From NCBI GenBank assembly GCA_020850315.1, contig JADZEY010000020.1, forward strand, positions 21,618-85,617: DNA of 64,000 nt, given 5' to 3'. Below are positions 2,486-60,050 of this stretch, piece after piece. The notes below the pieces were generated by a model. It did not search any database. It saw only the letters and a program-made list of their open reading frames with translations, and was not told the DNA's origin. Numbering within the stretch: position 1 is the first letter of the stretch; each line of letters begins with the position of its first letter. Origin of the DNA: Armatimonadota bacterium. Lineage in GTDB: Bacteria; Bacteroidota; Ignavibacteria; OLB7. The position numbers and the translations under genes were made by a program.

Positions 2486-2491
2486 GGGGAA

Positions 2492-2530
2492 GGGTGAAAA
2501 GTGAAGAGTGAAGGGTGAAAAGTGAAGGAG
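2492..2530 (+). repeat. Half copy of the heptamer repeat element: (RRGTGAA)x5 immediately after the nagZ-like stop
   Basis: The sequence reads gggtgaa aagtgaa gagtgaa gggtgaa aagtgaa. It matches the purine-rich arm of the composite repeats at 45844, 46994, 52811 and 57757. Confidence 0.7.
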
Positions 2531-9009: not shown

Positions 9010-9888
9010 TCACCACCGTGCCAGTTGTGCAATTTTTTCTTGGGGAACGTTTGCGGCGATTGCGATTGCAAGGTCGCCATACTTGCCAATGGAAAGGGAT
9101 TGCCCGCTGCCCGACGACTCCATCAGTGTTTCCCCCGCTGCCAGTTTCTGGGCCGCATCCTGCGTCACGTAGAACTGCTTCCCCTGCTGCAGCAACTGCC
9201 ACGGTAGCTGAAGCACGTACATCGTCTGCTGGCCCGAACGGTACACCAAGTGGGCAACCGCAACATTACCGTGATTGCTGACAAAGCCTCCCGCCAATGC
9301 AAGCTGCGTTGTTGGAAATTTTACGGCATAGCGTACCCCGCGCTCCTTAAAAAACTCCGATAGCTCCTCCTTGCTGTCGGTTTCCATCTCCGGCTTCACT
9401 TGGCCGCTAATCAGTGCTGCAACGTTGGAGTTTGCGGCGTTAAAAAGATTCAGCGCGGGAACAGGCTTTCCGCTTGGGGCTGACGCACGGGCGGGGGATT
9501 GAATTGGAAGCGTGGTGGAGGGCTGCTCGGGGCGGTTCAGCAGAAGGATTGCCCCGGCTAGAGCCAATCCCGCCCCCGCAAGCATTCCCCAAGCCCCAAA
9601 TCGCGATGAAGGAGTGCGATCAGCATTGGCCGTGGCCAGCGCAGCAGCATCGCGAACCACGTTTTGTGCGGTGGGTGCGGCTTCCGGCGGCGCGTTGATT
9701 CCCCCAAGCTGGCGTGGTTCGGAAATCGGTTGGGCGGCGCGTTCGCTTACGTTCATCCGCGCAGCCAGCTCGCGCTCGAACGTTGTTTTGCAGTCGTCGC
9801 ATGGGGCTTCGGTTGGGTTCGGTTGGTTCCCGTCGGGGTGATCCTCCACCCACGCGGTTATCTGATTATGAAACTCTTGAGCGGTCAT
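9010..9888 (-). CDS. Putative anti-sigma factor with an N-terminal zf-HC2-like domain, one transmembrane segment and a periplasmic C-terminal domain
   Basis: MTAQEFHNQITAWVEDHPDG...APCDDC has the H-x3-C-x2-C arrangement of zinc-finger anti-sigma factors. A hydrophobic segment (GAWGMLAGAGLALAGAILLL) follows. No ECF sigma gene is adjacent. Confidence 0.5.
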   Translation of the reverse strand: MTAQEFHNQITAWVEDHPDGNQPNPTEAPCDDCKTTFERELAARMNVSERAAQPISEPRQLGGINAPPEAAPTAQNVVRDAAALATANADRTPSSRFGAWGMLAGAGLALAGAILLLNRPEQPSTTLPIQSPARASAPSGKPVPALNLFNAANSNVAALISGQVKPEMETDSKEELSEFFKERGVRYAVKFPTTQLALAGGFVSNHGNVAVAHLVYRSGQQTMYVLQLPWQLLQQGKQFYVTQDAAQKLAAGETLMESSGSGQSLSIGKYGDLAIAIAANVPQEKIAQLARW

Positions 9889-10080
9889 TTGAATGTTGCT
9901 GAGCGATTGTTCCCGGCAAAAGTACAGAACTGCGGGGAAAGGCTTGCGGGGTGATTGCGTCCGTGAGAAGCAACAGTCCGTTGTTGTGGGGGGAAGCGGT
10001 GGCGGGGCAATGGAGCAAATCCGCCACCTGCCTGTATATTGCGCCCCCGAAAGCCTAACCGATCACCGGCCCGTACCTGA

Positions 10081-12309
10081 ATGTTTGTCGGACGCGAAGA
10101 CGAAATCCATCGAATCCATCAATGCCTTGCCGCAACTGCTCAATCCACTGGTGGCGGGGCCGGAAACCCAGCATCAATCATTGCCATGTACGGGCTGTTC
10201 GGTGCCGGAAAAACCACACTGCTGCGGCGGGTTCGGCGAATTGTTGAAAACGAACGGCTGGCCGATGCCATGTTGGTGATTAACGAAGACGTTACCACCA
10301 CCTCGCTGCCGGAGTTCGTCTATCACCTTGCCACCGGTTTCATTTCGCTTGACCCAGCCATTCCCCGGTTTTTTATTGACGAGACCGATGCCCGCCGCCG
10401 CCGCTACTTGCAAATTATGGGGCGGTTGGGGGCCGACACCATGCCGCTGCTGACCAAACTCCGTACCGAGCTTCACCAGCAATCAAGCCACCCAACCCCG
10501 GAAGGAAAAGCGATTGAGAGTGAGTTGCTGATGCTGGAACACGCCGTGAAAAACCAGTTCAACAACCCCGACGACCAGCGGCTGACGTTGGACACCGGAA
10601 ACGTCCTTGCCGAGTCGTTCATTGTGGATTTGATGAACACCATGTTTCCGCTGACCGACCAGATTGAATCGCTTGAGGCATATCTGCACACCGGGCAAAC
10701 CCCCAAACGGATTGTGGTGGTGATTGATACTTTCGAGAAAATCACCCCACTGCTGAACCCCTGGCTTCTGGAATCCTTGCTGCCATATCTGTACGAAAAA
10801 CGCTTTGGCGATTTCCATTCCTACCGCACGCCATACCTTCCTGCGGGGACGTTCGTGCGGGAGTTCTTCGACGTTCGGTTTGTGATTGCCGGGCGCGAAC
10901 GGTTGTCGCTGACGGATCTTGAACGTCGCTGGGATCGGTATCGCGAGGCGTTGATGGAAATCCCAATCGGGCCGTTCAGCCGCGATGAGCTTGCCGAATT
11001 TTTGCGGATCAGCGGGTTCAATCCAGAAGAGGTATCCGACCGCGTGATGGAGCTGACGCAAGGGCTTCCTTACTTGGTGACGCTCTGGAGCGATGCTGCA
11101 CGCGCCAGCAGCGAGGGGGCCGAGCAATCGTTTGTGAACGCGCTGGCCGAGCAACGGATTTTTTGGTACAAAACCGACCAGCAACGGGAATGGATCCGCG
11201 CCGCCGCCTTCCTTGATTGGTTCGATGCCGATGCCTTGCGCTGTTTCCCAGCCGTTGGCCCCGATGCCGAGCGGGCGTTTGAGTATCTGCGCAACTCTAG
11301 CGAGGTTTCCCGGCCCAGCCAAACAACGGCGGGGAAGTACGAACTGCACGGGATCATCCGCGACGCGCTGCGCCAAGCCACATTCCAGCAAAGCAGCGAG
11401 CGGGGCCAGGCGTTTCTTGAATCGGCCACGGCCTTCCAGAACGCTTGGGGGGTGCTGGCACGGTTCGATTTTGTGGAGCGTGATCTGCTTCGCCGTCTTG
11501 CATTTTTTGCGTGGTTCGATGCCGAGGCAATCCGCCGCTACTGTGGTGGCCAGGCGCACCGGGTCAACGCCATGATTGCTGCCGCCCCCGACCTTTTTTT
11601 GCCAACCAACGGAACTGGCCATCGCCTTGCCCCCGATGCGGCCCAAGTGCTGGAACGCTACAATCGCCGCGCCGAAGCCGACACCTACCAGCAACGGCTG
11701 CAAGAAGTGGAAACGCTGTGGCAAGCGCGGAAGCAGGAACTGGAATCGCAGCTGCACGAACGCCGCCAACGCCTTGCCAGCATCCAAGAAGAACTCCGGT
11801 TCAAGAACGCCGAACGGAAGATGAAAGCGGAGCTGCACCACTCAACACGGGGGACGATGGGGGTGTTGGAGTCTGATCTGCAAACCGCCCGCAAACGCCG
11901 CCGCCAGGGCCTGACCGACCGCGAAGCGGTGATTGCACGCACCAGTTTTTTCTTCATGGTGCTCTGTTTTCTGGTCTTCTTGTTCGTCCGCTCAATCTCG
12001 TTCGATCCCGTCACCCAGCAGCTTATCCGGACCGCCGCGCTGGTGCTGACGTTGCTGTTCGTCTTTGTGTTCGCGCTGATGCTGGGGCGCATCCTGTACC
12101 TGCGAAGCCGCAAAAAGGAGCTTCGGGATCTGCGGGAAGATGAGCTGTCAACCGAAGAACGATTGGCCAGCAAGCGGTACGAGCTTCACACGCTTGGCGC
12201 GGAAGCCGAGGTGGCCGAACGCTCCATTGCCGCGCTGAATGATGAAGCCGCGCTGATCCGCAGCCAAATTGAACAGCTGGAAAAAAGCATAGCGGCCCCC
12301 TACGTCTAA
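10081..12309 (+). CDS. STAND-like P-loop NTPase with a C-terminal coiled-coil and transmembrane hairpin
   Basis: The N-terminus has FVGREDEIHRIHQCL followed by Walker A GLFGAGKTTLL, then Walker B RIVVVIDTFEK, helical repeats, coiled-coil segments and two hydrophobic helices (FFFMVLCFLVFLFV and AALVLTLLFVFVFALMLG). Confidence 0.6.
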   Translation: MFVGREDEIHRIHQCLAATAQSTGGGAGNPASIIAMYGLFGAGKTTLLRRVRRIVENERLADAMLVINEDVTTTSLPEFVYHLATGFISLDPAIPRFFIDETDARRRRYLQIMGRLGADTMPLLTKLRTELHQQSSHPTPEGKAIESELLMLEHAVKNQFNNPDDQRLTLDTGNVLAESFIVDLMNTMFPLTDQIESLEAYLHTGQTPKRIVVVIDTFEKITPLLNPWLLESLLPYLYEKRFGDFHSYRTPYLPAGTFVREFFDVRFVIAGRERLSLTDLERRWDRYREALMEIPIGPFSRDELAEFLRISGFNPEEVSDRVMELTQGLPYLVTLWSDAARASSEGAEQSFVNALAEQRIFWYKTDQQREWIRAAAFLDWFDADALRCFPAVGPDAERAFEYLRNSSEVSRPSQTTAGKYELHGIIRDALRQATFQQSSERGQAFLESATAFQNAWGVLARFDFVERDLLRRLAFFAWFDAEAIRRYCGGQAHRVNAMIAAAPDLFLPTNGTGHRLAPDAAQVLERYNRRAEADTYQQRLQEVETLWQARKQELESQLHERRQRLASIQEELRFKNAERKMKAELHHSTRGTMGVLESDLQTARKRRRQGLTDREAVIARTSFFFMVLCFLVFLFVRSISFDPVTQQLIRTAALVLTLLFVFVFALMLGRILYLRSRKKELRDLREDELSTEERLASKRYELHTLGAEAEVAERSIAALNDEAALIRSQIEQLEKSIAAPYV

Positions 12310-15792: not shown

Positions 15793-17751
15793 TTACCGCC
15801 GTGGCACAATCTCAATCACTACCGTGCGGTTGTAGAAACGTTGCTCGGCAAGGTTGTTATTGAACGGTGCGCGGCGTTCGTCCTCGCCAAAGCCGTAGGT
15901 GTCGAACGTCACGGTTTTGCCTTGCCGCTGAAGCTCTTCGGTCAAGATTTTCTGTGCTGTTTCGGCGCGGCCTTGCGATAGCTTGTCGTTGTACTCCGGC
16001 GTTCCGGTGATGTCGGTGTGGCCGTGGATAATCACTGTCGCGCCGTCGGGTACTGCTGGGGCAACCGTGCTCACAAGGAAGTCCTTGTAGGTCTCCATCG
16101 TTTTCGATTGATCGAACTCGAACAAGATGGAGTAGCGCGTTGCCACTTCCTCCTCGTCGGGATCCACCACCAACCGGAACTCCTTCGGCTGCGGCGTGAT
16201 TGTCTCACCGTTTTTTGTGGAGATCGTCACTTTCGCGGTGTAGCGACCTTCGGTGGCCCCTGCCAGCAACTCTTTTGGGTCAATCCGAATCTGGTCGCCA
16301 GTCCCCTGATACTTCTTGGTGGTGCCGTTGCGGTCGGTGATCTCGGCAGTCCACATGGCAACGTCGCCAGTGGAAGCAACCCGCAGAATCACTTCCTGCG
16401 CTGGATCCTTCTCAACCGCGTTGATGAACACTGGCTTGTTCATGTCGTCGGGCGAACCGTTCAACTCCACACGGTAGTTTTCTGCATCCACCAAGGTCTT
16501 ATCCTCGCCCTGTGTGGATCCGCTTCCGCTGCGGGCGGTTGGCATTGCGCGCCCTTCGGTGGCGATTCGTGCGGGGTCAATGCTGAAGGTGGAGGTCAGA
16601 TAGTTCTTCACGTTCTCGGCCATCTGCTTTCCGGCATTGGCATCGCCGTTGGCAGAACCAACCAGCTTGACAGAAGATGATGGATTGCGGCGCAGACGGT
16701 CGCCATAGACGTTCAGCACGTTGTAGTACACCTCCATTTGGCGGCGCGAGCGTGTTACCAACGGATCGTTCCCGCCGGTTTCGATTCCCGGCTTAATCAG
16801 TTGTTCTTCGCGGAAGTTTCCGGCATCGGCACTGGAAAGGCGTTTGTAGCGTGAGGGGACATCGGTGGAGCCAGCGTCGAAGAAGACGTAGTTCCGCATC
16901 GGGAAGGTCTCGTTGATACGGCGGCTTCCGGGGATGACGCTTGGCGCGCTCACCACAAAATCGGCTTCTCCCGGTTTCAGTTCATCAATCGGTGTTGGCG
17001 GAACACTGCTGAATTTCAGCGCGATTCCGGCGCGAACGGTGTTCTCTTTGAAATCGGTTAGGTCGTTGTCGGCAGCGTCAATAAAATTTTGGAAGCCGAG
17101 GCGGAACTGAGCGAATGGTGTCACCACAATTTGGGTTCCGGGGCCGGGGCCTTGTAGCGGGATGTCGTATCCCAACCCAAGCTGCGCGCCAATCAGGAAG
17201 CTGCGGATGTTTGCGATCTCCTGCGACGAACTCAGCGTGGTATCGGGGGTGCTGAATTTCACTGTTTGCTCCGATCCCTTCGCCACGTTGATCCCGAAGC
17301 TGGGGCCAACAATGGCATGGAAAAAGCGATTGCCAAGATTCACCCGCAGTGCTGGTTCGATGGAGATGTAGGCTGGGCTAAGGCTTACGTCCTGTGTGAA
17401 GGAGCGGAGTGTGGTGTCGGGAAGCAGCCACGCGGTTCCGGTTGCTTGGTCGAAATCCACAGCACGGTTGTCGTAGCCAATTCCCAAGTTGAAGCCAAGA
17501 AGCGAGCCGGGGTTATACTCCAACAGCCCCCCCAATGCCAAACCCAATCCCGAACCGCTGTTCAGCCGCTGAACCCCATCAAACCCCACAAGCCCATCGC
17601 CCCCCACCATGTTGAGGTTTGCCCCGGCGAACAATCCGTACCACCAGTTTCCCCAACGTTGGTCGGGGCTGGTTTCCTGTGCGTTGGCGGTTGCTGCCGT
17701 TGCGATCGCTGCCAGCAGAATAACCGCCTGATAAATCTTGAGATGCTTCAT
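15793..17751 (-). CDS. Outer-membrane protein with a C-terminal OmpA-like peptidoglycan-binding domain
   Basis: Start at MKHLKIYQAVILLAAIATAATANAQ (ATG complement at 17749-17751). The C-terminus ...IHGHTDITGTPEYNDKLSQGRAETAQKIL...RRAPFNNNLAEQRFYNRTVVIEIV is a canonical OmpA domain. The upstream 175 codons of ORF 15793..18276 are non-coding. Confidence 0.8.
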   Translation of the reverse strand: MKHLKIYQAVILLAAIATAATANAQETSPDQRWGNWWYGLFAGANLNMVGGDGLVGFDGVQRLNSGSGLGLALGGLLEYNPGSLLGFNLGIGYDNRAVDFDQATGTAWLLPDTTLRSFTQDVSLSPAYISIEPALRVNLGNRFFHAIVGPSFGINVAKGSEQTVKFSTPDTTLSSSQEIANIRSFLIGAQLGLGYDIPLQGPGPGTQIVVTPFAQFRLGFQNFIDAADNDLTDFKENTVRAGIALKFSSVPPTPIDELKPGEADFVVSAPSVIPGSRRINETFPMRNYVFFDAGSTDVPSRYKRLSSADAGNFREEQLIKPGIETGGNDPLVTRSRRQMEVYYNVLNVYGDRLRRNPSSSVKLVGSANGDANAGKQMAENVKNYLTSTFSIDPARIATEGRAMPTARSGSGSTQGEDKTLVDAENYRVELNGSPDDMNKPVFINAVEKDPAQEVILRVASTGDVAMWTAEITDRNGTTKKYQGTGDQIRIDPKELLAGATEGRYTAKVTISTKNGETITPQPKEFRLVVDPDEEEVATRYSILFEFDQSKTMETYKDFLVSTVAPAVPDGATVIIHGHTDITGTPEYNDKLSQGRAETAQKILTEELQRQGKTVTFDTYGFGEDERRAPFNNNLAEQRFYNRTVVIEIVPRR

Positions 17752-34551: not shown

Positions 34552-35871
34552 TTGCAACTCTCCAAACATATCGGGACCGCTGCGTGGTCTGCTGCCGATA
34601 AAGCACTCTACGTGTTGATTGGCCTTGCCTTCATCCTTCCGCAAAAGGTGATTGGCGAACATAATTGGGGGGTGGCAACGCTGGCCCAAGCCGGCCTAAC
34701 GATCATCTACATGCTCTCGGATGGGTTCGCGCTGCAAGCGTTGGTGAACTTCGGGATGACCGAGTCGCGCCGCCGCCAAGCACTGACCATCTCGGCGGTG
34801 CTGCACGTGGGGTTTATCGCGCTCTGCACCGCCACCGTGTACTTCGCCCGAACCTGGTGGGCCAGCGTCCTGAACGAGCCTGATCTGATCCCCACGCTGG
34901 AGCTGTTTCCCCTTGTCGCGCTTGGGTTTTTGCTGCGGAACTACTTCCTGAAAATCTCCCAACTCCACATTGATACCCGCGCCACATTCCTGATTGATGC
35001 TGCGTGGATTGGAACCACTGTGCTGCTGGTGCTGCATGGCTGGGCCAACGCTTGGATGAACACCGCCGAGGATATGATGCTCATCAGCGCGGCATCCGCC
35101 GGGGCTTCCTCGCTGATGGGGCTGATGCTGTACGCCCGCCGCATCCGGTTTGCCCGAACGATTGACCGCGAACTGCTGCGGGAGATGGTTCGCTTTGGCC
35201 GCACCCAGATGCTCTCGGCAGGAACGCTGGCGCTGCAAACGCAGGGGGATTACCTTCTGCTAAAGCTGTTCGTAAGCTCGTCGGTGGTTGGCAACTATGA
35301 TGCTGCAAAGAAGTTGTTCCGTGGCTTCGAGGCGCTTCGCGATGCGGGTTCGCTGTTTGTCTATCCGGCGGTTGCACGGCTGAAATCGCAGGGGAGGGAA
35401 GGGGAGATGGTGCTGTTGGTGGAGAAGATGATCGGCTTCATGACGCTGCTTGCCGTTCCGGTGGTGGTGGTTGTCTGGATTGGCCCAACGGCGCAACTGT
35501 TTGAACTGATCTACCGCGGAAAGTACCAGCAGGCGGCCTTCATCTTCCAGCTGATGTGCCTTGCTGGATTGGCAATCCCGTTCAGCATGAACATCAACGT
35601 GCTGAACGGCCTTAGCCAGGCCCGGGCACTGCTGCGGGTGATCCTGATGTCGGCAGCGATCTTCTTCCTCAGTGGGTTGGCCCTGGTTCCGATGCTTGGT
35701 GTCCATGGCATGGCCATCACCATTGCCCTCAGCTATGTTGCGCTTGGCGCGTTTAGCACCCGTGCGGTAAAGAAGTTCGTCCCCTTCAGCATCCGCGGCG
35801 CGTTTGGCCGCTGGCGCGATGCTGTGGAGTTTATCCGGCGGCAGTGGAGGAAAAGAAGGAGAGTGGGGTAG
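34552..35871 (+). CDS. Polysaccharide/oligosaccharide flippase (MOP superfamily, Wzx-like)
   Basis: About 12 TM helices and an N-terminus ...AAWSAADKALYVLIGLAFILPQ typical of the polysaccharide biosynthesis protein family. Confidence 0.7.
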   Translation: MQLSKHIGTAAWSAADKALYVLIGLAFILPQKVIGEHNWGVATLAQAGLTIIYMLSDGFALQALVNFGMTESRRRQALTISAVLHVGFIALCTATVYFARTWWASVLNEPDLIPTLELFPLVALGFLLRNYFLKISQLHIDTRATFLIDAAWIGTTVLLVLHGWANAWMNTAEDMMLISAASAGASSLMGLMLYARRIRFARTIDRELLREMVRFGRTQMLSAGTLALQTQGDYLLLKLFVSSSVVGNYDAAKKLFRGFEALRDAGSLFVYPAVARLKSQGREGEMVLLVEKMIGFMTLLAVPVVVVVWIGPTAQLFELIYRGKYQQAAFIFQLMCLAGLAIPFSMNINVLNGLSQARALLRVILMSAAIFFLSGLALVPMLGVHGMAITIALSYVALGAFSTRAVKKFVPFSIRGAFGRWRDAVEFIRRQWRKRRRVG

Positions 35872-35916
35872 TGGTCAGTGGGCAGTAGTCAGTGGTCAGT
35901 GGTCAGTGGTCAGTAG
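35862..35916 (-). repeat. Reverse-oriented half copy of the repeat element: (GTGGTCA/GTAGTCA)n, the complement of ACTGACC
   Basis: gagtggggta gtggtca gtgggca gtagtca gtggtca gtggtca gtggtca gtag, followed by G6CT5. It overlaps the flippase stop codon. Confidence 0.7.
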
Positions 35917-36013
35917 GGGGGCTTTTTATCAATCATGTTCTATCAGCCGATTTCCGAGCTTCAAGCAATTCAATGCCAACGATTTCCAATCTCCGATAAC
36001 CTGATTCCCAACT

Positions 36014-45814: not shown

Positions 45815-45843
45815 AATAAAATTTTGGGGGTGTTGGGCAAGAG

Positions 45844-45922
45844 GGAATGGTGAATGGTGAATGGTGAATGGTGAATGGTGAATGGTGAATGAAGCATGGC
45901 CTCTTTGCTACTGACCACTGAC
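45844..45922 (+). repeat. Composite heptamer repeat element (full copy): (TGGTGAA)x6, an 18-bp linker, then (ACTGACC)x2
   Basis: agggaatggtgaatggtgaatggtgaatggtgaatggtgaatggtgaatg aagcatggcctctttgct actgaccactgacc. It sits in the divergent region between the 92-aa gene and hemH. Confidence 0.8.
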
Positions 45923-45990
45923 CAATCCCCCAAACCGCATTATTTTCAACTACAGACACCCCCTCTTCCCCTGAAACCGTATTTTCCCGC

Positions 45991-47013
45991 ATGGAACAGA
46001 TCGGAGTGATCTTGCTGAATCTTGGCGGCCCCGACTCGCTTGAGGCGATCCGCCCGTTTTTGCGTAATCTTTTTCTTGACCCAGAGATCATCAAAATCCC
46101 GCTGCCGGGGCCGTTGGGAAGGCTGTTCCCACGGCGGTTGTTTGCGGAGTTCGTCTCGTGGCGGCGCACCCCAAAAGTGCGGCCCAACTACCAGCAGATT
46201 GGGGGGAAGTCGCCGTTGGTGGAGCGGACAGTGGAGCAAGCCGAAGCCTTGCAGGCGGAGCTGAACCGCCGATTTGCTGGGAAGGCACAGTTCCATGTGA
46301 AGTTAGGGATGCGCTACTGGCATCCGTTCACGGTGGTTGCCGCCCAGGAGTTCCGGCGGCAGGGGATTCGCAACGTTTTTCTGCTGCCGCTCTATCCACA
46401 GTATTCCCGCACCACAACTGGCTCCAGTGCAAAGGAGTGGCGTGATCTTCATCGGGACAACTTTGGCCGTTGCTTCCGGGTGAAATCGGTTCGCGATTAC
46501 TACCGCCACCCGCAGTACATCGCCTCGATTAACGAGCGCATCGAAGCCACGCTGCAAGCAAAATTCACTCAGGCCGAGCGGCGCAACCTTCATATCCTGT
46601 TCTCGGCCCACGGCACTCCAGTTTCCGAAGTAGAAACTGGCGATCCGTATTCAGGGCAAATTCGGAAAACTGTGGAGTTAGTGATGCAGCTTCGGGGGAA
46701 CGACTATCCCCACCACCTCTCGTTCCAAAGCCGTGTTGGCCCGGTGGAGTGGTTGCAGCCGTACACGCAGGATAAACTTGCTGAGTTAGGGAAAAGCGGA
46801 GTGAAAAGCCTGCTGGTGGTTCCTGTGGCGTTCGTCACCGATCACATCGAGACGCTGCATGAGATTGACATCGAGCTTCGCGAAGAAGCCGAACATGCAG
46901 GCATCGAAAAATATGAAGTGATGTACGCCCTGAACGCCGAACCCCCGTTCATCGCCGCCCTTGCTGATGTTGTAGAAGCGAGGTATGTGGGAAGGATGAA
47001 GAGTGAAGAGTGA
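45991..47013 (+). CDS. hemH: Ferrochelatase
   Basis: Ferrochelatase family: ...GVILLNLGGPDSLEAIRPFLRNLFLDPEII... and C-terminal ...VPVAFVTDHIETLHEIDIE. The last five codons (MKSEE) are encoded by the heptamer repeat. Confidence 0.9.
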   Translation: MEQIGVILLNLGGPDSLEAIRPFLRNLFLDPEIIKIPLPGPLGRLFPRRLFAEFVSWRRTPKVRPNYQQIGGKSPLVERTVEQAEALQAELNRRFAGKAQFHVKLGMRYWHPFTVVAAQEFRRQGIRNVFLLPLYPQYSRTTTGSSAKEWRDLHRDNFGRCFRVKSVRDYYRHPQYIASINERIEATLQAKFTQAERRNLHILFSAHGTPVSEVETGDPYSGQIRKTVELVMQLRGNDYPHHLSFQSRVGPVEWLQPYTQDKLAELGKSGVKSLLVVPVAFVTDHIETLHEIDIELREEAEHAGIEKYEVMYALNAEPPFIAALADVVEARYVGRMKSEE

Positions 47014-47172
47014 AGGGGGGTGAAGGATGAAGGATGAAGGATGAAGGGTGAAGGATGAAGGGTGAAGGATGAAGAATGAAGAATGAAGAATGAAGAATGA
47101 AGAATAGTCTCTTCGCTACTGACCACTGACTACTGACCACTGACTACTGACCACTGACCACTGACTACTGAC
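46994..47172 (+). repeat. Composite heptamer repeat element (longest copy): (GAAGRRT)x~15, linker agtctcttcgct, then (ACTGACC / ACTGACT)x~9
   Basis: gaaggatgaagagtgaagagtgaaggggggtgaaggatgaaggatgaaggatgaagggtgaaggatgaagggtgaaggatgaagaatgaag(aatgaag)x4 aatagtctcttcgct actgaccactgactactgaccactgactactgaccactgaccactgactactgacc. It fills the entire hemH-hemY spacer and overlaps the hemH stop. Confidence 0.85.
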
Positions 47173-47177
47173 CCACA

Positions 47178-48536
47178 TTGCCTACCTCTCACATCATCAT
47201 CGGCGGCGGAATCTCTGGCGCGGCACTGCTCCATTACTTGGCGTTGGCCGGGAAGGATGTTTTGTTGTTGGAAAAAGGGAAACGGCTTGGCGGGGTGATT
47301 GGCACGCACCGGAACGATGCCGGAGCATTGATTGAAACCGGCCCGAACAGCACCCAAACCAGCAACCCCGATCTTCTTGATCTCATCGAATCATTAGGAT
47401 TGCGTGGCCAGATGCTGGAGGCCAACCCGATTGCCCGCAACCGCTACATCCTTCGTGATGGAAAGCTCTATCCGGTGCCAGCGTCGCCCCCAGCATTTCT
47501 CCGCTCCTCACTCTTCTCCCTGCCGGCCAAATTGCGATTGCTTCGCGAGCCGTTTATTGGCCGGGCTGCGGTTCAGGAGGAGTCGGTGGCGGAGTTCGTG
47601 CGGCGGCGGATTGGATCGGAGTTTTTGGAGTATGCCATCAACCCGTTTGTCTCGGGGGTGTATGCTGGGCGACCCGAGCGGTTATCGTTGCGGCACGCCT
47701 TCCCCAAGCTGCACAAGCTGGAAGCAGAGCACGGCAGCTTGATCCGTGGCGCAATTCGTGGCGGGCGGGCGCGGTGGCAAGCGGCGCGGCGCGGCGAAGT
47801 CCCCCGTGACCGTGCCAAGCTGGTATCCTTCCAGCAAGGGATGGAAACGCTTCCTGCGGCAATCGAGCAGCGGTGGCGCGGTCGCATCCGGTTGGGCGTT
47901 GCGGTGCAGCGTTTGCAGCGGGATGCCGACGGCTGGGTGGCTGTTTCCAACGCAGGGGATTTTCGGGTCGCAAGGGTGATACTGGCAACCGACGCAACCA
48001 CAGCGGCCACGCTGCTTCAGCCGCATCACCCGGGCGCGGCGCAGTCGTTGCGCGAAATTGAGTATCCCCCCGTTGCCGTTGCCGTCAGCCTTTATCGCCG
48101 TTCCGATATTCAGCACCCGTTGGATGGCTTCGGGATGCTGATCCCCGAAGTTGAGAAGCGAAAAATTTTAGGGGTGATCTTCTCTTCAACGCTCTTCCCG
48201 CACCGCGCACCGGAAGGGATGGTTGCCTTGACGACGTTCATCGGTGGGGCGCGCCAACCGGAGCTTCCACTGCTTGGTCAGGATCGGCTGGCTGAGCTTG
48301 TCTATGCTGAACACGCTGCGTTGCTGGGCGCGCTGGCGCCGCCATGTTCGTTCAATCTAACCGCTTGGGAGCGGGCAATCCCGCAGTACAACGTAGGCTA
48401 CGGCGGCGTGCTGGATTCCATTGCTGATGCCGAGATTGCCTTACCAGGATTGCATCTGCTGGGAAATTATCGTGGCGGCGTTTCGGTGGCCGATTGCATC
48501 CAATCGGCCCGAAATCTTGCAGCCGCAATCGCATAA
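47178..48536 (+). CDS. hemY: Protoporphyrinogen / coproporphyrinogen III oxidase (HemY family, FAD-dependent)
   Basis: N-terminal FAD dinucleotide-binding motif IIGGGISGAALLHYLA...LLLEKGKRLGGVIGT, size 452 aa, and position between hemH and hemB. The start is a TTG immediately after the repeat. Confidence 0.8.
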   Translation: MPTSHIIIGGGISGAALLHYLALAGKDVLLLEKGKRLGGVIGTHRNDAGALIETGPNSTQTSNPDLLDLIESLGLRGQMLEANPIARNRYILRDGKLYPVPASPPAFLRSSLFSLPAKLRLLREPFIGRAAVQEESVAEFVRRRIGSEFLEYAINPFVSGVYAGRPERLSLRHAFPKLHKLEAEHGSLIRGAIRGGRARWQAARRGEVPRDRAKLVSFQQGMETLPAAIEQRWRGRIRLGVAVQRLQRDADGWVAVSNAGDFRVARVILATDATTAATLLQPHHPGAAQSLREIEYPPVAVAVSLYRRSDIQHPLDGFGMLIPEVEKRKILGVIFSSTLFPHRAPEGMVALTTFIGGARQPELPLLGQDRLAELVYAEHAALLGALAPPCSFNLTAWERAIPQYNVGYGGVLDSIADAEIALPGLHLLGNYRGGVSVADCIQSARNLAAAIA

Positions 48537-48648
48537 ATCCTAACCTCACAATCACCCACAACAATCACCCACAGTTGCGGGGCCACGCGCCAGCCGCTGG
48601 GGGAAGAAAAAAAATCAATCAACAAGCAAGCAACAACCAATACCCTGC

Positions 48649-52102: not shown

Positions 52103-52813
52103 ATGCGCAACACTGCACCGATTGCTTCCCAGAAACTGTTCCTGATAGCCTTGCTTGCCGTTGCCGCAATGGCGGCCGGATGCAGCCACACCAATAATCT
52201 TGCCAAGTATCACCTGCACGGTAAGCCCGCAATGTTCCGCGCCTCCGCTTCCGGGGGCGGCTCTTCTTCGGTCAGTATCAACAACCCAACCGATAGCTGG
52301 ATTGGCGACATCGCCGCCATTGCTGGCTCGATTGCCCTAAGCTCCCAAGCACAAAAAAAATTAGAGAAGGCTATCAACCCCGATTCGCTGGCGGCCAGCT
52401 TGGCCGTTGGGGTGCGCCAGTCGGCCATTGATTACTTCCAGCTTCGCCCGCCAGTGGACCCCAGCGAAACCCCAGAGTATTTGGTGGAGATTGAGTTGAC
52501 CGACTACGCACTCCATTCCGGTACAGAAGGGGTTGCTGCGGGGGTGACAGGGGAAGTGCGGATTGTTCACATTGCCACCGGAGAGATTGTTTGGGAGAAT
52601 TGGGAGACAACAGTGATACCGCTTTGGGGAAGCTCCTCCGGTTCGGATAAGCGGGAAGTGGATGCCGCAAGCAGCGGAAGCAACGCCGTTGGGCTGTTCA
52701 ATCTGGAAGAAGAAGAAATTCGCCGCATCCTGAATGATGGCGCGTTGGCCGTTGGGCGTTATCTTGGCGACGAACTTCGCGAAGACCTTGCTGAAATGTT
52801 CGAGGAAGAATGA
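52103..52813 (+). CDS. Hypothetical lipoprotein
   Basis: Lipoprotein signal MRNTAPIASQKLFLIALLAVAAMAAGC. No family recognised. Confidence 0.5.
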   Translation: MRNTAPIASQKLFLIALLAVAAMAAGCSHTNNLAKYHLHGKPAMFRASASGGGSSSVSINNPTDSWIGDIAAIAGSIALSSQAQKKLEKAINPDSLAASLAVGVRQSAIDYFQLRPPVDPSETPEYLVEIELTDYALHSGTEGVAAGVTGEVRIVHIATGEIVWENWETTVIPLWGSSSGSDKREVDAASSGSNAVGLFNLEEEEIRRILNDGALAVGRYLGDELREDLAEMFEEE

Positions 52814-52897
52814 ATGGAGAATGGAGAATAGGTTCTTCGCTAATGACTACTGACTAATGACTAATGACCTCCTCTTGCAACTGACCACTGACTCACA
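52811..52897 (+). repeat. Composite heptamer repeat element (full copy): (GAATGGA)x2-3, linker ggttcttcgct, then (AATGACT/ACTGACT)x4 and ctgaccactgac
   Basis: tgaatggagaatggagaatagg ttcttcgct aatgactactgactaatgactaatgacc tcctcttgca actgaccactgactcac. It fills the whole spacer between the lipoprotein gene and the next gene. Confidence 0.8.
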
Positions 52898-52902
52898 ACT
52901 CA

Positions 52903-53625
52903 ATGCTGCAACGATCTTTACTACTACTGCTGCTGTTCATGCTGTGCTCGGGTGGGGTAGCGTTAGCGCAATCCACCGGTGGGGACTCACCTGACACAAG
53001 CTACATCCCCGAGCCTGCCTACCCCGATACGTTGGCCATGGAACCCGACACTGACATCACCTACGAGCCAGACTTTGTTGATGGCTACGCTTTTGGTTTG
53101 TACGCCGGGTTCACTGCCGAAAAGCCGGGATTGGATCTTGCAAAATTGGATCCGCAGCTTACTGGCACCTTGGTGATGTATGGTGGTGAGTACTCGGTGC
53201 TGATGGGGGAGTGGTACGTCAACTTCAGCACGGTTGGGTCTCATCTGTACGACCTAAGCAGTGCCTACGATAACTTCACGCTGGATTACAGCGGCTACGG
53301 AACCGGCTACGAAACCTCATTTTTCAAAAACACCTTCACCTTCCGCGCTGGTGCCGATGCGGGAACAGGAACTTTGAAGATGATAAAACGCACCAACCTT
53401 ACCGACTCCACTGGCCATGATCTGTTAGAGGATTATCGCCGCGAGGACTTCTTCTACATCCGCCCGTCGGCCAGCATTGGGGTGCCGATACTGCAAGTGT
53501 TTTTGCTTCGGTTGGCTGGTGGATACATGATGGCGTTTGGGCCAGAGCGTGTGCGCGACCTCAACAATTTCAGCTACGGCCTCCACCTTCTGTTTACGGT
53601 TCGGATGCCCACATTTCGATTCTGA
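52903..53625 (+). CDS. Secreted hypothetical protein, paralog 1 (beta-rich, possibly outer membrane)
   Basis: Signal peptide MLQRSLLLLLLFMLCSGGVALAQ, an acidic/tyrosine-rich N-terminal region, and a C-terminal region alignable to the next gene (e.g. ...MIKRTNLTDSTGHDLLEDYRREDFFYIRP... versus ...MIKKRPDIIDSTGRQILERYRDEDYFLLRP...). Confidence 0.5.
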   Translation: MLQRSLLLLLLFMLCSGGVALAQSTGGDSPDTSYIPEPAYPDTLAMEPDTDITYEPDFVDGYAFGLYAGFTAEKPGLDLAKLDPQLTGTLVMYGGEYSVLMGEWYVNFSTVGSHLYDLSSAYDNFTLDYSGYGTGYETSFFKNTFTFRAGADAGTGTLKMIKRTNLTDSTGHDLLEDYRREDFFYIRPSASIGVPILQVFLLRLAGGYMMAFGPERVRDLNNFSYGLHLLFTVRMPTFRF

Positions 53626-57751: not shown

Positions 57752-57756
57752 GATCG

Positions 57757-60050
<2,294 letters not shown>

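Follow-up and report, generated by a model that had tools for sequence, protein, structure and literature searches.

What becomes of a gene junction when a tandem repeat fills it? We studied the junction between hemH, which encodes ferrochelatase, and hemY, which encodes a HemY-type protoporphyrinogen oxidase, in a 64,000-nt stretch of contig JADZEY010000020.1 from the genome assembly GCA_020850315.1. We call this whole stretch the window. An earlier note had stated that an array of 7-nt units (heptads) encodes the last residues and the stop codon of ferrochelatase, and had proposed that the array re-made the 3' end of hemH, replaced the spacer between the genes, and left no room for a ribosome binding site (RBS) or a promoter in front of hemY. 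The observation that the repeat encodes the end of hemH is confirmed. To account for it, we favor, with moderate confidence, a two-part heptanucleotide simple-sequence repeat that grew by slippage in the gap between hemH and hemY, together with a hemY start that has no Shine-Dalgarno (SD) sequence and a helix that possibly couples the two genes.

The end of hemH lies within the array

The spacer between the two genes is 164 nt long (47014-47177), and the array that fills it also covers the end of hemH (Table 1). The earlier note described a single array. Its period-7 repeat is real (Tandem Repeats Finder placed a period-7 array at 46991-47103), but there are two arms, with different units, and a linker between them. 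Arm 1 is arranged as 4 units, a 3-nt phase break (GGG, 47018-47020), and then 12 units of TGAAGGA, TGAAGGG, or TGAAGAA. Arm 2 runs nearly to the TTG start codon of hemY, as had been noted, with just 4 nt (CACA) left before 47178. Across the window, there are 9 period-7 segments, compared to 0.02 in block shuffles, and 19 ACTGACY doublets, compared to 0.08 expected.

HemH from the window ends with IAALADVVEARYVGRMKSEE and then the stop codon. The repeat does write both the residues GRMKSEE and the TGA: the last 7 codons and the stop (GGA AGG ATG AAG AGT GAA GAG TGA, 46990-47013) are in the register of the array, which overlaps hemH by 21 nt plus the stop. In arm 1, TGA occurs in each frame within 21 nt. 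Because every unit on the sense strand contains TGA, the array necessarily supplies a stop and closes all three frames within that distance.

The arms lack complementarity to one another, and the element folds no better than shuffled sequences (z = +0.38, or +0.28 in its full context). For other elements of this type in the window, the corresponding values are +1.45, -0.32, and, for the element upstream of hemH (E1), -2.38. A hairpin formed by the two arms, whether as a terminator or like a repetitive extragenic palindrome, is ruled out by the z score of +0.38 and by the lack of a terminator-like site.

Opposite the array, the minus strand is free of stop codons across 46842-47140. It contains spurious open reading frames (ORFs) of 63 and 94 aa that encode repetitive peptides (HSSF/ILHPS), which an annotator could take for genes.

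Table 1. Coordinates of the hemH-hemY junction, the predicted helix's strands, and the other heptad elements (E0, E1, E3, E4, and E5) in the window.
Feature	Coordinates	Strand	Description
hemH (ferrochelatase)	45991-47013	+	340 aa; PF00762, E = 5.6e-107; TIGR00109, 314 bits
hemH end	46990-47013	+	last 7 codons and TGA stop; heptad register GGAAGGA TGAAGAG TGAAGAG TGA
Arm 1	46990-47104	+	16 purine-rich heptads: TGAAGAG, TGAAGGG, TGAAGGA, TGAAGAA (TGAAGRR)
Linker	47105-47117	+	13 nt, pyrimidine-rich, TAGTCTCTTCGCT; motif TCTTYGCTA common to the elements at 45899 and 52830
Arm 2	47118-47173	+	8 heptads of ACTGACC or ACTGACT (ACTGACY); then CACA and TTG at 47178
hemY-type protoporphyrinogen oxidase	47178-48536	+	452 aa; TTG start; TIGR00562, 315 bits, from residue 6
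Predicted helix, left strand	46951-46991	+	41 nt just before the array; hemH codons 321-334, IAALADVVEARYVG
Predicted helix, right strand	47171-47209	+	39 nt just after the array; hemY -7 to +32, including the UUG start
E0	2489-2527	+	arm 1 units only; begins 4 nt past the stop of the GH3 gene at 854-2485
E1	45843-45924	+	divergent spacer upstream of hemH; (GAATGGT)7, linker, (ACTGACC)2
E3	52811-52893	+	arm 2 ends ~10 nt before the ATG at 52903; AATGACC-type units also present
E4	57755-57829	+	antisense to both flanking genes
E5	35876-35918	-	arm 2 units only, antisense to flanking genes; begins 5 nt past the stop of ORF 34552-35871

The junction in related genomes

We compared the junction to those of related loci (L001-L216) and proteins (P00xx). 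All identities given are for HemH relative to the window's HemH, unless stated otherwise. In nine relatives (L004/L008 and L009-L016; 65-77% identity), hemH and hemY overlap by 4-17 nt (of the ATGA or GTGA type) or are separated by a 1-nt gap, and HemH has a tail of 13-19 residues after a conserved RY. Overlap or abutment of the two genes amounts to direct translational coupling, the ancestral state. Spacers are confined to the clade of the window, where the arrays range from ~32 to 164 nt; the distant relatives (n = 9) overlap or abut. Since a spacer is missing from most relatives, the array did not take the place of one, contrary to what the earlier note had supposed. Instead, the array is itself the spacer.

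Within this clade, the junction takes several forms. L001 (86% identity) has an unrelated 114-nt spacer without heptads, and its HemH ends in RRYKGRIRSQG, with the stop in the same position as in the window. The other relatives have HemH proteins that are at least 90% identical. L094 and L095 share the order arm 1, linker, arm 2, TTG, with spacers of 32 nt and 54 nt and HemH proteins that end in VEMANNE and GIANVE, respectively. In L087, L093, and L216 (a hemY contig; HemY is 96% identical), the arrays break the assemblies, and the HemH proteins of L087 and L093 end in GRRKGEE and GRVKDEG. In L007 (Chlorobiota MAG-306; 95% identity), HemH ends in LGKSK and the arms are reversed in order and strand: its spacer consists of (AGTCATT)3, TGCTGGCTTTGGCTTCA, and (TTTCACT)8, followed by TTG. 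Nucleotide homology between the window and L007 breaks exactly at 46991 and returns at 47194. Overall, the number, sequence, and orientation of the units at this junction differ strongly among close strains (the window, L007, L087, L093, L094, L095, and L216), and there is turnover at E1 and E3 as well.

In L007, the reversal affects both elements that flank hemH. These elements (9708-9939 and 11028-11123, orthologous to 45843-45924 and 46990-47173) have the order reverse-complemented arm 2, linker, reverse-complemented arm 1. The linker seems not to be reversed, and hemH and its neighbors keep their orientation. Also, the upstream element in L007 has an insert of ~140 nt (9767-9900) with a short hairpin (cattcccgcgaaagcgggaatc) between its arms, which has no counterpart in the window. 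This insert may be a small element that is nested in the array.

The short-read assemblies of sister strains (the 3' ends of L087-L093 and the 5' end of L216) all stop inside the hemH-hemY array. These contig ends imply that the arrays fragment metagenome-assembled genomes (MAGs) and that copy numbers in assembled contigs are uncertain. For one relative, the database protein P0039 (574 aa, from a 95-kb ENA contig) is recorded as HemH joined to the N-terminal FAD-binding domain of HemY. Either this fusion is genuine, or it reflects a frameshifted call where the two genes overlap.

The window's HemH is 100% identical to a protein from an NCBI MAG that is labelled "Armatimonadetes bacterium." The close relatives of HemH and HemY, along with a colinear genome with 86% identity, are all labelled Kapabacteria, Kapaibacteriota, or Chlorobiota. 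Judging from these sequences, the Armatimonadetes label is probably wrong.

The tail of HemH

In the window's HemH, the matches to PF00762 and TIGR00109 both end at residue 330 of 340, which leaves a tail of 10 residues (RYVGRMKSEE). Among HemH proteins that are at least 90% identical, the tails are GRMKSEE, GRRKGEE, GRVKDEG, GRMKDEG, GIANVE, VEMANNE, and LGKSK. Because the tails vary freely within this cluster and the family models end at 330, the tail looks unconstrained and its residues look dispensable. The tail GRMKDEG, from a sister strain, consists of three perfect heptads and the stop (GGAAGGA TGAAGGA TGAAGGA TGA).

Did the array re-make this end of the protein? The window's GRMKSEE is colinear with GRIRSQG from L001, which has no array, and both proteins stop at exactly the same codon. 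The pattern G-R-[I/M]-[R/K]-S is also found in P0011 (AGRIRSNDNG) and P0035, which are more distant and array-free. We infer that the array overwrote, or grew from, a native purine-rich 3' end of hemH. The length and the character of the residues would have been kept because the changes are conservative and the tail is dispensable. The truncation of the tail relative to distant relatives is common to L001, so it is not attributable to the array. The idea of a re-made 3' end is thus overstated. By the earlier note's own criterion, a repeat-free genome whose HemH also ended in MKSEE would count against its proposal; that exact tail did not turn up, and the nearest cases are GRIRSQG and the GR[IM][RK]S pattern in array-free relatives. 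All told, the earlier interpretation is partly supported, by the register of the codons, by the break in homology at 46991, and by the lack of an RBS or promoter, but not as to the re-making of hemH or the significance of the RBS.

The database entry for the corresponding protein of L094 (P0130; 343 aa, ending in NEWLLL; 2518-2535) reads the TGA within the array as tryptophan because the gene was called under a different genetic code. Translation table 11 gives a protein that ends in VEMANNE.

The start of hemY

The TTG at 47178 is the only ATG, GTG, or TTG upstream of the dinucleotide-binding motif GGGISG, and there is an in-frame TGA at 47169-47171. Because of this TGA, no candidate start other than TTG 47178 would retain the motif. 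The match to TIGR00562 begins at residue 6, NCBI's model of the protein is also 452 aa, and the earlier choice of start codon agrees with all of this. A TTG start for hemY is also found in L007, L094, and L095.

We found no GGAG, GAGG, or AGGA within 25 nt upstream of this TTG. Of 42 predicted genes in the window, just 9 have an SD-like motif, and the leaders are mostly rich in A and C and poor in G. An SD-less start is the norm for this organism. As for the claim that the array leaves no room for an RBS or a promoter, it is true that none fits between the array and the TTG, but the missing SD is ordinary here (33/42 genes). A scan of the hemH-hemY spacer for sigma-70-like promoters and for terminator consensus sequences found no site, and Rfam, at its gathering thresholds, had 0 matches in the whole 64-kb window.

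Downstream of hemY are hemB and then hemL. The hemY-hemB spacer contains a perfect 13-nt direct repeat (ACAATCACCCACA, two copies, 48548-48573) and an 11-nt repeat that is rich in A and C (CAAGCAACAAC, 2.3 copies, 48616-48640). Neither of these is made of heptads.

Other arrays in the window

Are the features of this junction specific to hemH? The window has six heptad elements: the one at hemH-hemY (E2) and five more. All six lie between genes with Pfam support, and they overlap at most the last 5-7 codons of three of these, namely hemH, ligA (NAD-dependent DNA ligase; 57813-60050, minus strand), and ORF 52103-52813. This ORF ends in EMFEEE, with its TGA inside the E3 array, and the final MVSGQ of ligA lies in the reverse complement of E4's arm 2. 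At E0, E3, E4, and E5, the stop codon of the upstream gene is inside the array or no more than 5 nt away. Because these four other elements hold or adjoin the upstream stop as well, writing the last codons and the stop is a general habit of the arrays in this genome and is not specific to hemH.

The flanking genes are for heme biosynthesis, a DNA ligase, a GH3 protein, and an ABC permease. Relative to transcription, three of the elements are in the sense orientation, two are antisense, and one is in a divergent spacer. Four of the elements have two parts, and three of these (E1, E2, and E3) share the linker motif TCTTYGCTA. E3 is orthologous between the window and L007, yet the units are GAATGGA in one and GAAGAGT in the other, respectively, and the second arm is absent from L007, which indicates turnover of the units.

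The L007 ortholog of ORF 52103-52813 likewise has EEE at its C-terminus and its TGA within a heptad array (17070-17110; 52803-52893 in the window). The last five codons and the TAG stop of ligA (57813-57829, minus strand) are the reverse complement of ACTGACY units, so in that case the units are antisense to the gene.

A predicted helix closes the hemH-hemY array

The sequences on either side of the hemH-hemY array are predicted to pair with each other. The predicted helix comprises 32 pairs (duplex energy -43.9 kcal/mol), and the array forms its 179-nt loop. None of the other natural pairs of a gene's 3' end and a start region, 1521 in all, has a better energy, and of 9137 windows over the 64 kb, the one from hemH pairs best with the hemY start region. 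Reduced to a mini-hairpin, the helix has z scores of -6.44 and -5.49, and 0 of 200 shuffles were as stable. When the full 271 nt are folded, both the minimum free energy structure and the centroid contain the helix, and its pairs have probabilities of 0.75-0.92. In its local context, the hemY start region is predicted to be open (its unpaired probability of 0.84 is the second highest of 37 in the window). When the hemH strand is present, this probability is 0.31-0.33.

None of E0, E1, E3, E4, and E5 has complementary flanks (z = -0.4 to +1.9), so the helix is a trait of this junction rather than of the repeat family. We considered complementary flanks, similar to terminal inverted repeats, as a general trait of these elements and rejected this idea, since they are seen only at hemH-hemY. 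In the genomes with overlapping genes, 8 of the 9 mini-hairpins have z scores between -0.8 and +1.5, and L015 has -2.31.

Translational coupling by long-range RNA pairing operates at rpmI-rplT in E. coli and between the coat and replicase genes of phage MS2. The hemY start region resembles these systems in that it is predicted to pair with the coding end of the upstream gene and would open upon its translation. Unlike those systems, the helix is a prediction, its strands are 179 nt apart, its conservation is partial, and the computed opening is modest.

Comparison to known heptamer repeats

The element fits a known class, the intergenic heptanucleotide simple-sequence repeats, which are also called long simple-sequence repeats (LSSR) or short tandemly repeated repetitive sequences (STRR). 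What is new is a member of this function-less class in a phylum where the class had not been described before. The STRR heptanucleotides of heterocystous cyanobacteria, which Mazel et al. reportedly described in 1990, are said to be tandem intergenic heptamers with several families of units per genome. To our knowledge, that description includes neither a two-part architecture nor overlap with gene ends. STRR2 (TTGGTCA) is presumably the same repeat as the GGTCATT/AATGACC of E3 in the window and of L007.

The closest parallels are with the TAACTGA repeats of marine Beggiatoaceae and of some Cyanobacteria and Bacteroidetes (MacGregor 2015, PMC4679880). Those repeats are in the forward orientation, end about 1 nt before SD-less starts, place stops in all three frames, and have no predicted structure; in BOGUAY, 13-14 sets extend into the upstream ORF's end (PMC4679880). 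Also, relatives can lack the repeat in the same spacer, and contigs end inside the arrays (PMC4679880). The window's repeats are similar in their 7-nt unit, the ACTGA core of arm 2, an end near the SD-less start of hemY, stops in all three forward frames, the overlap with upstream ORFs, the absence of RNA structure within the repeats, the existence of a close relative without the array (L001), and contigs that break at arrays. They differ in sequence, as there are 0 TAACTGA doublets in the window, even with 2 mismatches allowed, and arm 2 (as CYACTGA) shares 5 of 7 bases. They also differ in having two parts, with a purine-rich arm and a common linker; in occurring in both orientations, whereas the BOGUAY repeats are strongly biased to the forward orientation; and in their host, which is from the Kapabacteria/Chlorobiota. 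A forward array ends near a start codon at hemY (4 nt) and at E3 (~10 nt), but E4, E5, and the array of L007 are antisense.

Another comparison is with the heptamers GGGAATC and GGGGAYT of Xanthomonas and Nostoc, about 90% of which are intergenic, with ~28 nt between array and upstream ORF (Rehm et al. 2015, PMC4692102). The two orientations are equally common, there are 70-75 convergent pairs, and the arrays are hypervariable between close species (PMC4692102). They are transcribed and also occur inside operons (pecE-pecF), and no function was found (PMC4692102). As cited there, Mrázek (2007) considered heptamers to be the commonest long simple repeats and gave polymerase slippage as their origin. 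The window's arrays are likewise intergenic, near the end of the upstream ORF, in both orientations, and variable between close relatives. Unlike the TGAAGRR and ACTGACY units, which have no G3 tracts (save one G6 run), the Xanthomonas and Nostoc heptamers have G-tracts and form quadruplexes. Paired arrays are frequent among those repeats and are found here too; the arms at hemH-hemY are not complementary to each other.

Heptad arrays are common more widely. Loci centered on hemH from Ignavibacteria, Bacteroidota, and Pyrinomonadaceae have many, often as inverted pairs, and among the matches listed from a scan of metagenomes for (ACTGACY)3, many have the form (GGTCAGT)n-loop-(ACTGACC)n between genes. 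Among the metagenome matches listed, the ACTGACY arrays show no bias towards start codons (19 sense starts vs. 27 antisense gene ends), although many arrays are inverted pairs that were counted both ways and the heuristic for ORFs is crude.

Inverted pairs such as (GTGGTGA)n..(CTCACCA)n and (GGTCAGT)n..(ACTGACC)n occur in Pyrinomonadaceae, in Ignavibacteriae, and on many metagenome contigs. Examples are at L046 (19402-19471 and 20155-20224), L078 (16191-16286), L057 (19345-19419), and many of L096-L175. These pairs would form long periodic hairpins between genes.

How the array might have arisen, and what it might do

In the explanation that we favor, the arrays would grow and shrink by replication slippage, along with exchange between copies, and would spread until they reach sequence that is under selection. 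HemY would be initiated independently at its SD-less TTG, like most genes in this genome. The array would be the loop of the 32-bp helix that joins hemH codons 321-334 to the hemY start region, and initiation of hemY may still depend, through this RNA structure, on ribosomes that translate the end of hemH. The direct coupling of stop and start codons in the nine distant relatives has been lost, and any coupling that survives would rest on the helix of the flanks and not on the repeat units.

Several observations weigh against this explanation. For the helix, the z scores of the mini-hairpin are -3.25 in L094, -2.07 in L001, -1.60 in L007, and -0.04 in L095; next to those of the window, these values mark a strong helix in the window and L094 only, a weaker one in L001 and L007, and none in L095. 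There are no scorable compensatory changes: the one 5' end of hemY that was recovered from a sister strain (L216) is identical to the window. (The hemH strand of L087 has 3 differences from the window, and none of these is an informative compensation.) Also, blocking the hemH strand in constrained folding raises the unpaired probability of the hemY start from 0.31 to 0.45 only, because the purines of arm 1 offer other partners. Since this opening is modest, we regard coupling of hemY to hemH through RNA structure as plausible: it may occur, but it is not a result. For the origin of the array, slippage is suggested indirectly, by differences between strains, and copy numbers of units in a short-read MAG are approximate and may be inexact. 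Paralogous junctions are somewhat more alike than orthologous ones (0.73-0.76 vs. 0.55-0.67). This likeness, the common linker, and the reversals in L007 hint at copying or movement between loci, beyond slippage in place.

These hints could instead mean that arm 1, linker, and arm 2 together form a small non-autonomous mobile or gene-converting element, which was inserted either way round and did not grow in place. Besides the closer match among paralogous junctions and the reversal of both hemH-flanking elements in L007, this account would explain why E1, E2, and E3 have one linker while the two copies in L007 share a different one, and perhaps the 140-nt hairpin-bearing insert that is nested in the upstream element of L007. 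We consider it unlikely. The elements have no common terminal inverted repeats or target-site duplications, and only E2 has complementary flanks, which are coding. The units of the arms differ in sequence and number at each locus, even for E3, which is orthologous between the window and L007; the lengths at one junction form a graded series (32, 54, and 164 nt); and instead of near-identical dispersed copies, the junction identity among copies is only 0.59-0.76. No transposase-like partner turned up, although no search aimed at one was made.

Alternatively, the repeat units might be a platform on the mRNA that is bound by S1, by a cold-shock or CsrA-like protein, or by the ribosome, and that controls hemY translation within a post-transcriptional network spanning the genome. 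Such a platform was proposed by MacGregor for the TAACTGA repeats (PMC4679880), and 147 of 170 sets of those repeats have a similar geometry (PMC4679880) to that of arm 2, which has the ACTGA core and ends 4 nt (hemY) or ~10 nt (E3) before a start. Consistent with this, hemY is SD-less, the arms are unstructured (z = +0.38 for the hemH-hemY element), and units of the TGAANNN and ACTGAYN types recur across loci of Kapabacteria, Ignavibacteria, and Bacteroidota. However, the arrays do not keep one orientation relative to transcription: E4 and E5 are antisense, the hemH-hemY array of L007 is reversed, and among the listed metagenome matches there are 19 sense starts for ACTGACY arrays vs. 27 antisense gene ends. 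Unit sequences change freely between strains, and L001 does without any array. All this makes the platform quite doubtful.

A bolder extension of the explanation that we favor is that the array and the 32-bp helix act as one tunable device that couples the two genes. The helix would have kept hemY translation dependent on hemH once the ancestral overlap was lost, and the loop, hypermutable (from 3 units to more than 24) and reversible, would set how tightly hemH and hemY are co-expressed. We view this as a long shot. If it were true, populations would have a heritable and quickly adjustable stoichiometry of the last two heme enzymes, and if the same logic held at other arrays, a widespread and so far function-less class of repeats would have a function.

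We find it harder still to credit the array as a copy-number dial for hemY, that is, a hypermutable repeat of the contingency type. The array is in the leader of hemY, its length differs several-fold among strains, the closing helix would become more or less stable as the loop changed in length, and there are precedents in the 7-bp repeats upstream of hmw in Haemophilus influenzae and the AGAT repeats of uspA2 in Moraxella (PMC4679880, PMC12721329). But hemY is a housekeeping gene for heme synthesis and not a surface or contingency gene, similar arrays lie beside unrelated housekeeping genes (ligA, the GH3 gene, and the ABC permease), and for comparable arrays, Rehm et al. detected no regulatory role (PMC4692102). 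The variation in unit number that we saw is between strains. The genes flanking the arrays (heme, DNA ligase, GH3, ABC permease) include no surface or virulence genes, unlike those beside phase-variable contingency repeats.

Finally, the array is very improbable as an assembly artefact of a short-read MAG: assemblers do struggle here, as sister contigs end inside the array, but independent assemblies from several projects have the same type of array at this junction (L087-L093, L094, L095, L007, and L216), and both flanks read cleanly into conserved genes.

Implications

For annotators, C-termini and stop codons that are encoded by repeats are real but evolutionarily fluid. The arrays break assemblies, and their stop-free opposite strand gives rise to spurious ORFs.

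In many bacteria, no long simple repeats are more abundant than intergenic heptamers, which still have no demonstrated function. The junction of hemH and hemY offers a clean natural series between two conserved genes: an overlap, arrays of 32, 54, and 164 nt, a reversed array, and a spacer without an array. These junctions provide ready-made constructs for testing how a repeat affects translation. The series shows how an array colonizes a gene junction: it takes over a dispensable tail and the stop codon and ends direct translational coupling.

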